IMG/VR virus record: IMGVR_UViG_3300028805_000051
Span: 107,394-171,393 of that record
Strand: one strand, 5' to 3'
Source of the DNA: a virus
Lineage: Duplodnaviria; Heunggongvirae; Uroviricota; Caudoviricetes
DNA: 64,000 bases
The position numbers and the translations under genes were made by a program. Shown piece after piece: positions 45,823 to 48,323 of the stretch. The notes beneath the pieces were generated by a model, which was given only the letters and a program-made list of their open reading frames with translations, made no database searches and was not told the DNA's origin. Positions within the stretch are counted from its first letter, which is position 1, and each line of letters starts with the position of its first letter.

Positions 45823-46533
45823 ATGTGTATTTTAAAGAAAAAACAACCAGTTGTTGAGTAGGCTCCTGAAACTCAACCAATTGTAGAAAATCAAGAAAAA
45901 TAGGAGATTAAAGTGTTAGATACTGAGAGTCCTATAACTATTATATTAGGGACTGCTCATTTAAAAAGTACACCTGGCAAGCGTTCACCTGATGGTGCAT
46001 TTAGAGAATATAAATTCTCAAGAAATGTTTGTTTAGACATTCAAAAAACATTAACTGAACTTGGTTATAGATGTATTATTGATTATATTGATGATGATAT
46101 GGAAAATTCTAAAAAAGAGTTGGAAAATCGTTGCAGTATAGTTAATAATATATGTAAGAAGTATGGTTCAAAGAATTGTCTATATGTATCCATTCATAAT
46201 AATGCCGCAGGTAATGGTGGTGAATGGAAAAAAGCGTATGGTTGGAGTGCGTGGGTGTATAGAAACGGAAGTGAAAATTCTCGTAAATTAGCAAATTGTT
46301 TATTTGATGCCTGTAAGAAATTAGGATTAAAAACTCGACAAGAATCTCCAAATAAAAGATATTATGATTGTGGATTTTATGTATTAAAACATACAAGTTG
46401 TCCAGCAGTTCTTACTGAAAATTTCTTTTAGGATTGTTTAGAAGAATGTGATTTTCTAATGTCAGAAGCAGGTAGAAGAGCAGTAGTTGCAATTCACGTC
46501 AATGGAATATTAAATTACTTAAAAGGTATATAA
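45823..46533 (+). CDS. N-acetylmuramoyl-L-alanine amidase (Amidase_3-like endolysin) with 3 in-frame TAG
   Basis: ORF track core 45913..46431 (GTAHLKSTPGKRSPDG...YVSIHNNAAGNGGEWKKAYGWSAWVY). An in-frame ATG at 45823 adds a sensible Q/E-rich N-terminus through 2 TAGs. Reading through the terminal TAG adds 33 aa, ending at a TAA at 46531-46533. 711 nt. Confidence 0.6.
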
Positions 46534-46537
46534 TATT

Positions 46538-46816
46538 ATGTTATTCAGTAAACTTTTTAAGAAAATTAAAAATCTTCCTTATTGGAGATGTCTTACTTGT
46601 GAACATTTTTGTTGGTGGGATGGAGATTATTGTTGTGTAGATAAAATGAAAATATTAGCTGAGTCTCCTAGTGGTAGAATCACCAAAGAACGATATGATA
46701 CTTTGTATGAACGATATAAACGTTGTCGATCTTATAAAGAAAAACATTATATTTGGAATAAAAGTGGTTTATATGTTGAATTAGATAAATTGATAAAAAA
46801 GTCCTTTAATGCATAA
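46538..46816 (+). CDS. small Cys-rich protein
   Basis: ORF track entry. Confidence 0.4.
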   Translation: MLFSKLFKKIKNLPYWRCLTCEHFCWWDGDYCCVDKMKILAESPSGRITKERYDTLYERYKRCRSYKEKHYIWNKSGLYVELDKLIKKSFNA

Positions 46817-46867
46817 ATATGTCAAGTTCGAGGAGTACTGACGTTAAATATAAAACTCCTCTATTTA

Positions 46868-46941
46868 GCGAGTATCGTTCAATGGTAGGATAGAGCCCCT
46901 CCAAGGCTTAGATGTGAGTTCGATTCTCATTACTCGCTCCA
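46868..46941 (+). tRNA. tRNA-Gly(UCC); CCA encoded
   Basis: Anticodon loop CCTCCAA. Confidence 0.85.
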
Positions 46942-47071
46942 ACTCTTAGGGTTTCTTCTTGTAGTAGATTTTACAAGTTTCTTTTCTTTAGAGATTATGA
47001 AAGTCATACAGCAAACTTTTTAAAACTTTATCAAAATATGTGAATTTCAATAATCCAAAAAGAAACCCCAC

Positions 47072-47278
47072 TTGACTTTTGAAAACTTTTTAACAATGAG
47101 TGATACAATAAAACACAAAGATTTAGGTAAACGTAAACGTTTACACAAAACATCTTTCATTGCAGAAAAAATGATGAATCGTAAATGCGGTTCTATTGAT
47201 GACAAAGTTGATAAACTTGAAGCTCTTAGAAAAGCTGAAAAAGAAGTAATGAAAGAAGTTGAAGAACTATTAAGTTGA
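47072..47278 (+). CDS. small basic protein
   Basis: ORF track entry. Confidence 0.35.
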   Translation: MTFENFLTMSDTIKHKDLGKRKRLHKTSFIAEKMMNRKCGSIDDKVDKLEALRKAEKEVMKEVEELLS

Positions 47279-47312
47279 AATTTATATAACTAGCTAGAAT
47301 TTCAACTTTTTT

Positions 47313-47403
47313 GGAGAGGTGGCAGAGTCTGGTTTATTGCACTTGTCTTGAAAACAAGAGCTCGGAGGAATCTGGGCCTAGGGTTCGAATCCCTATCTCT
47401 CCA
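47313..47403 (+). tRNA. tRNA-Ser(UGA), class II
   Basis: Anticodon loop CTTGAAA; long variable arm. Confidence 0.85.
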
Positions 47404-47518
47404 CTAAGTGCTTGGATGGCCATGAGACCAATACGTTTAAGATTTGTTCTTTTGAAGCACTATAAATATAATATGGGCCTCTGCTGCTGCGAGGGTAGTC
47501 TCTTTCTCGTCAGCATTT

Positions 47519-47591
47519 GGGGATTTAGCTCAGATGGTAGAGCGTCTGATTTGCATTCAGAAGACCAGCGGTTCAAGCCCGCTATTCTCCA
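47519..47591 (+). tRNA. tRNA-Ala(UGC), G3:U70
   Basis: Anticodon loop TTTGCAT. Confidence 0.85.
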
Positions 47592-47990
47592 CTAAATAAA
47601 GTATTTTTGTTTCACTACGCCAGGGTAGTAAAGCTGGAAATCTATCGTGATAGTTTAGGGAAAAAGCTCCCTAGGATTATATTCTCGGGTGGAAGATAGA
47701 GTATAATCTGAAAGAAATCTGACTGCCGTTCTATAAGGTTGGCGAGGAGTCAGTTCAGTTGGATTAATCCCGAAATTAGATGGCTCAAAACCTAGATAAA
47801 GCTTTGAATCTTTATTGAATACTTTATTTAAATTATAATGAAAGAGGCAGAATGTAATTAATATAGTATAAATGATAAAAAGAGTACACTTTCATTTAAA
47901 CTTATAAGGAACCCTAACAGCAAAATTTGAATATACTTTTTGGATCTTATTTATGGGTTCTGAATTATTAACCAAATAAATAAAAAACTT

Positions 47991-48323
47991 ATGGAAATTT
48001 TAATGACAATGTTTGCAACGTTTGTTGCATTTGTATCAGGTATTCTGGTACTAACGTAGGCAGTTAATAAACTGTTTAAAGTAGAAAATTCTCAGATTAA
48101 ACTGATTGTATCTTGGGTACTTTCAATTGGACTTGCTTTAATAGCATTTGCTTTACAACTTGGTTTCTTTGCTGATTGTGGAACAATTGATATGTGGCAA
48201 GGATGGGTAAAAGCTGGACTAATTGGATTTGGTTCTGGTTTATGTGCTAATGGAATGTATGACCGTGATGAAGTTTGGAACTTCTTACAGTGGATATTTT
48301 CAATGTTTAGATCTAAGAAATAA
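47991..48323 (+). CDS. holin-like small membrane protein with one in-frame TAG
   Basis: ATG at 47991, TAG at 48057-48059, TAA at 48321-48323. Two hydrophobic helices (MEILMTMFATFVAFVSGILVLT-Q-AVNK...IVSWVLSIGLALIAFALQLGFF). Absent from the ORF track because of the TAG. Confidence 0.45.

Follow-up and report, generated by a model that had tools for sequence, protein, structure and literature searches.

TAG codons in the endolysin and membrane-protein genes of a probable crAss-like phage: two recoded genes in a standard-code region

We analysed a stretch of 64,000 nucleotides of a tailed-phage genome (Caudoviricetes; IMG/VR record IMGVR_UViG_3300028805_000051, positions 107,394 to 171,393), which is referred to below as the window. 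It has a GC content of 32%, and its coverage by open reading frames (ORFs) of at least 100 codons increased from 56% to 74% once TAG was treated as a sense codon. The subject of this report is a pair of plus-strand genes, one for a predicted Amidase_3 endolysin and one for a small membrane protein, both of which contain in-frame TAG codons. An initial annotation of the same sequence had described them as lysis genes located outside the late operon, and had suggested that their full-length products could be made only when TAG is decoded by a suppressor transfer RNA (tRNA). A candidate for such a tRNA, with anticodon CUA, is encoded on the minus strand of the window. The features under discussion are listed in Table 1.

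Table 1. Location of the two TAG-containing genes, their in-frame TAG codons and other features of the window.
Feature	Position	Strand	Evidence or occurrence
Predicted Amidase_3 endolysin gene, 236 codons + TAA, three TAG sense codons	45823-46533	+	Pfam, PHROG, homologues, PDB
TAG, amidase codon 13, N-terminal linker	45859-45861	+	TAG also in L001, L004, L005, L142-L146, L150, L151
TAG, amidase codon 27	45901-45903	+	CAG (Gln) in L001, L004, L005
TAG, amidase codon 203, ENFF-Q-D motif	46429-46431	+	Near-invariant Gln, 33 homologues
Small membrane protein, "holin-like", 110 codons	47991-48323	+	Conserved family, hydropathy, purifying selection
TAG, membrane-protein codon 23, family-invariant Glu	48057-48059	+	121-sequence family alignment
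Predicted suppressor tRNA, anticodon CUA	30117-30188	-	ARAGORN; Rfam tRNA 46 bits; sequence and fold
92-residue Cys-rich ORF, TAG-free, 4 nt 3' of amidase gene	46538-46816	+	Syntenic in L001, L002, L142, L150, L175 (88-89 residues)
tRNA-Gly, spacer between amidase and membrane-protein genes	46868-46941	+	ARAGORN, Rfam
60-residue ORF, same spacer	47096-47278	+	
tRNA-Ser, same spacer	47313-47404	+	ARAGORN, Rfam
tRNA-Ala, same spacer	47519-47592	+	ARAGORN, Rfam
Membrane-anchored glucosaminidase-domain protein, TAG-free	38883-39551	+	Pfam PF01832, 32.3 bits (cut-off 30.2)
Late-block NlpC/P60 protein, 14 in-frame TAGs	21988-23673	+	Pfam, 25.2 bits (cut-off 23)

Two coding regimes could be distinguished in the window. 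The late block (549–19729 on the minus strand and 21988–29560 on the plus strand) contains the portal, the large terminase (TerL) and a 2452-residue protein. In-frame TAGs were present in 19 of the 20 genes delimited there, amounting to 98 in 8610 codons (11.4 per 1000), or 26% of the codons of glutamine (Gln) type, and none of the 20 genes terminated in TAG. The TAG-free regions (19.7–21.6 kb and 29.6–64 kb, the latter taking in a tRNA array) yielded 39 delimited genes, three of which, all early genes, were cut at a terminal TAG by our own judgement. Across their 6439 codons these 39 genes contained not one internal TAG, against ≈73 predicted from the density in late genes; their off-frame TAG density was 17 per 1000. 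With four TAGs in 346 codons (11.6 per 1000), the amidase and membrane-protein genes exceed what chance would produce in this setting (Fisher p = 6.7e-6). The placement of both candidates outside the late operon was thus borne out, and they form recoded islands in a standard-code region.

TAG also appears to remain usable as a stop codon in early genes. Three genes of the early region end in apparent TAG stops (35442, 52892 and 60977, all on the plus strand), each with a second stop close behind, which at 60977 follows directly (TAG-TAA). The base after the TAG is T in all three cases. At the four TAGs of the amidase and membrane-protein genes (45859, 45901, 46429 and 48057) the next base is G, and after late-gene TAGs it is A in 36 cases, G in 24, T in 20 and C in 18; the counts behind this contrast between the two genes and the early stops are too small for interpretation.

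The amino acid specified by TAG was approached through alignments. In the amidase, codon 203 lies within a TENFF-Q-D motif in which Gln is near-invariant across 33 aligned homologues, and codon 27 is CAG in three related loci (L001, L004 and L005). In TerL, Gln was the commonest residue in seven of 12 TAG columns; the TAGs occupied variable sites, avoided invariant Gln sites and were never found at invariant non-Gln positions (0 of 12). The third comparison was with a standard-code relative, L173 (ENA ERZ27245999 k119_271595), whose portal and TerL proteins are 76–79% identical to those of the window and whose genes for them have essentially no in-frame TAG. TAGs of the window were aligned with CAA or CAG in L173 at 18 of 33 positions, with Lys codons at five and with GAA or GAG at four. 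This spectrum resembles that of the CAA and CAG codons of the window, which correspond to Gln in 53 of 76 cases and to glutamate (Glu) in four; GAA and GAG codons correspond to Glu in 123 of 157. Because the amidase codons, the TerL columns and the comparison with L173 agree, TAG is concluded to be a Gln codon in this phage (genetic code 15). The identity to a standard-code relative also implies that the code switched over a short evolutionary distance. For crAss-like phages with a tRNA(CUA), metaproteomics has shown that TAG in late virion proteins is read as Gln (Peters et al., PMC9523058). The exception to the match between TAG and Gln in the window is codon 23 of the membrane protein, which is aligned with Glu and is discussed below.

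The amidase reading frame opens with ATG at 45823, is interrupted by TAG at 45859, 45901 and 46429 (codons 13, 27 and 203), and reaches its first other stop, TAA, at 46531. Under genetic code 11, only a core ORF of 172 residues is seen, from GTG 45913 to TAG 46431; read-through of that TAG adds 33 codons. The in-frame ATG, the N-terminus with two TAGs and the 33 additional residues had all been pointed out in the initial annotation, and the comparisons below agree with it. With TAG translated as Gln, the product matched the Pfam family PF01520 with 72.5 bits (cut-off 27) over residues 40–230 and profile positions 1–173 of 174, the match running through codon 203 into the C-terminal extension. 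It also matched PHROG 435 (endolysin). Its homologues align over the full length, the PDB relatives 7RAG and 3QAY are alignable up to residues 231–233, and the sequence HVNGIxNYLK in the extension is conserved among homologues. The 33-residue extension is accordingly part of the Amidase_3 domain. The 33 homologues show no variation at His46, Glu62, His125 and Glu199; we take these to be the metal-binding and catalytic His/Glu/His/Glu positions of Amidase_3. The protein is predicted to be an N-acetylmuramoyl-L-alanine amidase that functions as an endolysin. Like CD27L (PDB 3QAY), it has a full Amidase_3 domain in which these four residues are invariant; it differs from CD27L in its additional Met-Cys N-terminus and Pro/Glu/Gln-rich linker, in its three TAGs, and in having no cell-wall-binding domain.

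The N-terminal region upstream of the core ORF has the same layout in many homologues, in which Met-Cys is followed by a hydrophobic and basic stretch, a linker rich in Pro, Glu, Gln and Thr, and then the domain itself. The Met-Cys start is found in nearly all of the N-terminally extended homologues (for example, MCILKKK, MCFTKT, MCLSKT and MCIKKAE). Neither a signal peptide nor a lipobox was found in the extension. The N-terminal 30 residues of the amidase are thus conserved and belong to the genuine protein. The hydropathy profile revealed no hydrophobic segment in the amidase; the protein is therefore presumably cytoplasmic and would need a lesion in the membrane to gain access to the cell wall.

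We considered the possibility that translation is confined to the short code-11 ORFs, which would leave a 172-residue amidase, a truncated or dead membrane-protein gene and non-coding flanks. The 172-residue form is indeed predicted by some database gene callers (P0006 and JGI entries), and an AGGAG sequence lies 7 nt upstream of GTG 45913. However, AGGAG here corresponds to the Gln-Glu codon pair at the TAG of 45901, it is not conserved in L002, and the gene starts of the window are without Shine-Dalgarno motifs; together with the conserved N-terminus, these observations led us to reject GTG 45913 as the true start. At the other end, neither the Amidase_3 profile nor the solved structures are complete without residues 204–236, which include the conserved HVNGIxNYLK, and the membrane-protein gene is under strong constraint 3' of its TAG (see below). 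Both extensions of the amidase are conserved, and it is extremely improbable that the short forms are the real proteins.

The membrane-protein gene, which the initial annotation had correctly outlined as 110 codons with one internal TAG and two helices, starts with ATG at 47991 and runs through a single TAG at 48057 (codon 23) to TAA at 48321. Strong hydrophobic segments comprise residues 1–26 and 34–66, and the C-terminus is basic (RSKK). The protein belongs to a well-conserved family of ≈105–130 residues whose members align over the full length. In TAG-bearing alleles, the proportion of synonymous differences (pS) 3' of codon 23 was at most 0.20 and that of non-synonymous differences (pN) was 0.005–0.01, giving a pN/pS of ≈0.03–0.06. 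Such strong purifying selection argues that the protein is translated beyond the TAG. Homologues were found to be aligned across every TAG position in both the amidase and the membrane protein.

The designation of this protein as holin-like was only partly upheld. Its size, its hydrophobic segments and its charged C-terminus would suit a holin, but the protein had no Pfam match and no holin family match in either Pfam or PHROG. Its PHROG matches were weak (phrog_20258, of unknown function, E = 0.008), and one of the 121 family members weakly matched the holin family phrog_1299 (E = 0.008). Homologues of similar size with ≈34% identity over 95% of the length are encoded directly 3' of the lysin gene in Hankyphage p00 (BK010646) and in phages of Porphyromonas gingivalis (PP754930), where they are annotated as holins. 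In those phages, the holin label is itself annotation only, and the lysins are of another family (PHROG 822). The surroundings of closer homologues differ. Among 16 IMG/VR homologues with 58–71% identity, no Amidase_3, Amidase_2 or glucosaminidase homologue was found within 5 kb, and several of these loci have a RecT-like or RecE-like gene as the next one upstream. In L007, a crAss-like relative, the gene is located among RNase_T, HU, methyltransferase and dUTPase genes.

The membrane protein might therefore belong to an early or recombination module, serving for example in exclusion or membrane remodelling, with a TAG that has nothing to do with lysis. The gene neighbourhoods and the lack of a holin family match favour this alternative. 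Weighing the other way are the position of the 34%-identical homologues directly after a lysin gene, the two or three hydrophobic segments and basic C-terminus, and the genetic linkage to the amidase. The gene is located 1.46 kb 3' of the amidase gene in the window and 0.8–2.5 kb 3' of it in close relatives, and stays within 1.5–3 kb of it throughout this lineage. Moreover, apart from the amidase gene, it is the only confidently delimited gene in this part of the window with an internal TAG. We consider the odds of a function other than that of a holin to be a little short of even, and the holin label is correspondingly weak.

The TAG codon in the membrane-protein gene does not follow the pattern of the others. 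Among the 121 family members, codon 23 encodes Glu in 117, Asp in two and nominally Gln in two, both of which have TAG; CAA or CAG was not found at this position in any of the 121. The TAGs of both genes are real and translated, but the one at codon 23 is not a synonymous replacement for Gln, since it falls on an invariant Glu. TAG is present at this codon in all 14 listed members of the 90% cluster and at 14 related loci (L142–L154 and L175) that come from many independent samples. Within the lineage, GAG in L004 and L005 is the one other allele. A separate TAG occurs at codon 23 in P0148/L006, which represents an unrelated family branch; its nearest relatives have Glu according to a neighbour-joining tree. 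The codon-23 TAG is thus fixed across the phage population and arose independently at least twice. A sequencing error or one-off nonsense mutation at 48057 was rejected on account of its recurrence in the 14 loci, in many samples and in the L006 branch.

Three options may be considered for this codon: a change from Glu to Gln may be tolerated or useful, selection may favour a gate at an early position just behind the first helix, or decoding may lack uniformity. The reading in which the UAG is a positively selected gate is suggested by the invariance of the Glu, the location just after the first helix, the two origins, and fixation despite synonymous options, as two invariant Gln codons lie further 3' in the gene where CAG could have been replaced by TAG. 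If codon 23 is selected, the early stop might leave a harmless 22-residue peptide, or the substitution of Gln for Glu might tune triggering, and recoded stops would then be placed for regulation even at a cost in protein sequence. That this UAG is a positively selected gate and not merely a tolerated Gln, or else that UAG decoding is not uniformly Gln, is a tentative and on balance unlikely interpretation.

Decoding of the codon-23 UAG as Glu, either in place of Gln or alongside it, could result from a mischarged suppressor or from near-cognate decoding. It would be consistent with the predominance of Glu and the lack of CAA and CAG in the family, and with GAG as the sole alternative allele in the lineage. 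The tRNA(CUA) leaves room for it: the U1-A72 pair is Gln-like, the discriminator base is U, and the sequence does not settle the amino-acid identity. (When phage records were searched with this tRNA by blastn, the only match was to a tRNA-Met and was uninformative.) On the other hand, TAG acts as Gln elsewhere in the window, both at amidase codon 203 and in the comparison with L173 (18 Gln versus four Glu), and Gln was the residue found by proteomics in crAss-like phages (PMC9523058). We regard Glu decoding as quite improbable.

The island of TAG codons around the amidase recurs in related phages. In L142, L150 and L175 (amidase identity 82–93%), the amidase gene has three or four TAGs and the membrane-protein gene one, and there are none in the adjoining genes for an 88–89-residue protein and an IMPDH-like protein. 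In L177, at ≈60% amidase identity, the amidase gene has two TAGs and its nine neighbours have none; the membrane-protein gene is not present in that locus. Every relative examined had at least two TAGs in the amidase gene, although their positions shift between lineages, swapping with CAA and CAG. The island pattern is thus conserved down to 60% identity while the TAG positions turn over. More distant loci were found in IMG/VR with the degenerate DNA patterns TENFF-TAG-D and TENFF-CAR-D, a search from the single amidase sequence having returned two distant loci only. The Gln position of the TENFF-Q-D motif is TAG at eight of these loci (amidases ≈50% identical, on contigs of 54–183 kb) and CAA or CAG at no fewer than 120. 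Identical copies of the amidase and of the membrane protein, in which every TAG is rendered as Gln, have been deposited from two or three assemblies for each protein.

In the window and its relatives, the next TAG-free gene on the same strand begins within 4 nt of the amidase stop or overlaps it. In the window, this gene is the 92-residue Cys-rich ORF, for which no Pfam or PHROG match was found; its 88–89-residue counterparts overlap the amidase stop in some of the loci in which they occur (L001, L002, L142, L150 and L175). Such close packing suggests a shared transcript, and hence control at the level of translation. We infer that the amidase gene is probably co-transcribed with its TAG-free neighbours.

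The most likely explanation for these observations is that the TAGs in two recoded genes of a standard-code region act as a translational gate on lysis proteins, a reading that we consider probable. TAG sense codons abound in the virion genes and are avoided in the early, metabolic and tRNA-array region. Without UAG suppression, a ribosome starting on the amidase gene would stop after 12 residues, and one starting internally would fail to add the final 33 residues, which are aligned with the C-terminal portion of Amidase_3. If translation ended at codon 202, the product retains all four invariant His and Glu residues and loses the C-terminal end of the fold, and would presumably be inactive. 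Translation of the membrane protein would stop after its first transmembrane helix. Because the TAGs stop unsuppressed ribosomes, both full-length proteins depend on the tRNA(CUA) of the phage, as the initial annotation had supposed: the TAGs are internal to conserved ORFs, and the tRNA is encoded in the window. The TAGs would most likely prevent synthesis of the lysis proteins for as long as suppressor activity is still accumulating. A translational gate is favoured because the amidase gene abuts TAG-free genes on the same strand with which it is probably co-transcribed. Late suppressor activity and an effect on the timing of lysis are steps that we infer.

Several observations weigh against such a gate. 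The suppressor tRNA is located in a small minus-strand unit that starts beside the early block and could be made early. The occurrence of GAG at codon 23 in L004 and L005 means that the gate in the membrane protein is dispensable, and the role of this protein in lysis is itself uncertain. The amidase is coded like a late gene, with no special enrichment of TAG in the window: the TAG share of its Gln-type codons (three of eight) does not exceed the average of 0.26 for late genes (binomial p = 0.34). Finally, TAG positions drift among relatives, and simple tolerance of TAG would give the same picture.

Such tolerance amounts to permissive drift, in which the two genes are transcribed late and changes from CAG to TAG accumulate neutrally, so that the TAGs would mark late expression and regulate nothing. 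The free exchange of amidase TAGs with CAA and CAG among close relatives would be expected in this case, as would an amidase TAG share within the late-gene range of 0.07–0.5 and the location of the TerL TAGs at variable sites, off the invariant Gln sites. Neutrality does not, however, predict a TAG that is non-synonymous at an invariant residue and arose twice, as in the membrane protein. It is also at odds with the retention of at least two TAGs in the amidase of every relative examined, and with the arrangement in several lineages where TAG-free genes of the same strand abut or overlap the amidase gene, which argues for shared transcripts. Permissive drift alone thus seems rather unlikely to us. 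No promoter motif common to the two genes and the late operons was apparent by eye in the upstream regions, and for this reason the timing of expression is not inferable from the sequence.

The idea that recoding gates lysis has already been published, and the window provides a new example and not a new mechanism. Borges et al. (bioRxiv 10.1101/2021.08.26.457843) described a crAss-like amidase and spanin with preferential use of TAG, and proposed that the timing of lysis is controlled in this way and premature lysis prevented; the initial annotation had arrived at the same hypothesis. Their phages share with the window a suppressor tRNA, the restriction of TAG sense codons to structural and lysis genes, a TAG-bearing amidase and standard-code replication and early genes, as well as the proposed logic by which the lysis proteins are incomplete until the code switches. 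In their crAss-like examples, however, the lysis genes are found together with structural genes in one recoded unit, whereas in the window the amidase and membrane-protein genes are isolated, ≈16 kb from the late block and inside the tRNA array. No spanin was identified in the window, and the TAG at a Glu site is a further difference. The evidence of Peters et al. (PMC9523058) came from virion proteins, while the present case concerns a lysis gene and a TAG at a conserved Glu. A single endolysin with two to four TAGs beside TAG-free, probably co-transcribed neighbours makes a clean natural test case in which translational gating can be separated from transcriptional timing, although it adds no new principle. 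The unexpected element is a stop-derived codon kept at an invariant Glu of a conserved membrane protein.

This gut phage, with TAG reassigned to Gln, is probably a member of the Zeta group of crAss-like phages. Its TerL is 28–31% identical to crAss-like TerL (tblastn). Zeta-group genomes are 145–192 kb in size, and close relatives of the window are found on contigs of 176–185 kb. The window resembles that group in its many tRNAs, its split, crAss-like TerL and its standard-code relative, and also in its early genes that end in TAG with a second stop nearby, as described for Zeta crAss-like phages (PMC12386605). Yutin et al. (PMC7886860) reported that crAss-like phages recode mainly their late genes, and neither the amidase island nor a TAG at a conserved Glu is part of the published descriptions of the Zeta group (PMC7886860, PMC12386605). 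The large terminase gene of the window is split (13259–16596, minus strand). Exon 1 (14467–16596) ends in ...DIIASMG and exon 2 (13259–13480) corresponds to the last ≈70 residues of 777-residue homologues. The ≈1-kb insert between them includes an endonuclease ORF (13537–14439, PHROG 4645), itself with three in-frame TAGs, and has the appearance of a group I intron that encodes a homing endonuclease.

That the phage encodes more than one peptidoglycan hydrolase, as previously noted, agrees with the two further domain matches given in Table 1. The glucosaminidase-domain protein has a hydrophobic segment at residues 2–36 that would serve as an N-terminal anchor, and in-frame TAGs occur only upstream of its start codon. 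The NlpC/P60 protein of the late block has an additional, sub-threshold SLT match. In L173, genes with Glucosaminidase and PG_binding_1 domains are located beside the late block.

The genes between the amidase and the membrane protein vary even among close relatives (L004, L005, L142 and L143), in which the counterpart of the 92-residue ORF is either present or absent. The IMPDH/FMN_dh-like gene present in L142, L150 and L175 is absent from the window. Other TAG-bearing genes occur near the membrane-protein gene in relatives (L142, 6176–6913 and 7162–7575; L150, 4608–5243). Among their products are a GIY-YIG endonuclease and one PDDEXK_5 protein, and mobile-element nucleases thus also appear to be TAG-coded in these relatives. 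A megablast search of positions 43000–49000 against INPHARED phages gave no match. The GC-richer non-coding stretches near the two genes (44700–48600 and 45540–45800) yielded only tRNAs and chance-level matches in an Rfam E-value scan, and their folding was also at chance level (z-score -1.2).

A divergent intergenic region (30590–31085) lies between the plus-strand early block and the minus-strand unit with the suppressor tRNA. This region carries several copies and palindromes of a ATTTTCAAAAT-like motif, which could be promoters, operators or an origin. At least 27 tRNAs were found in the window by ARAGORN and Rfam. Two of the Rfam tRNAs, at 42182–42321 (140 nt) and 62374–62494 (121 nt), both on the plus strand, have long internal inserts and were missed by ARAGORN; these are probably intron-containing tRNA genes.

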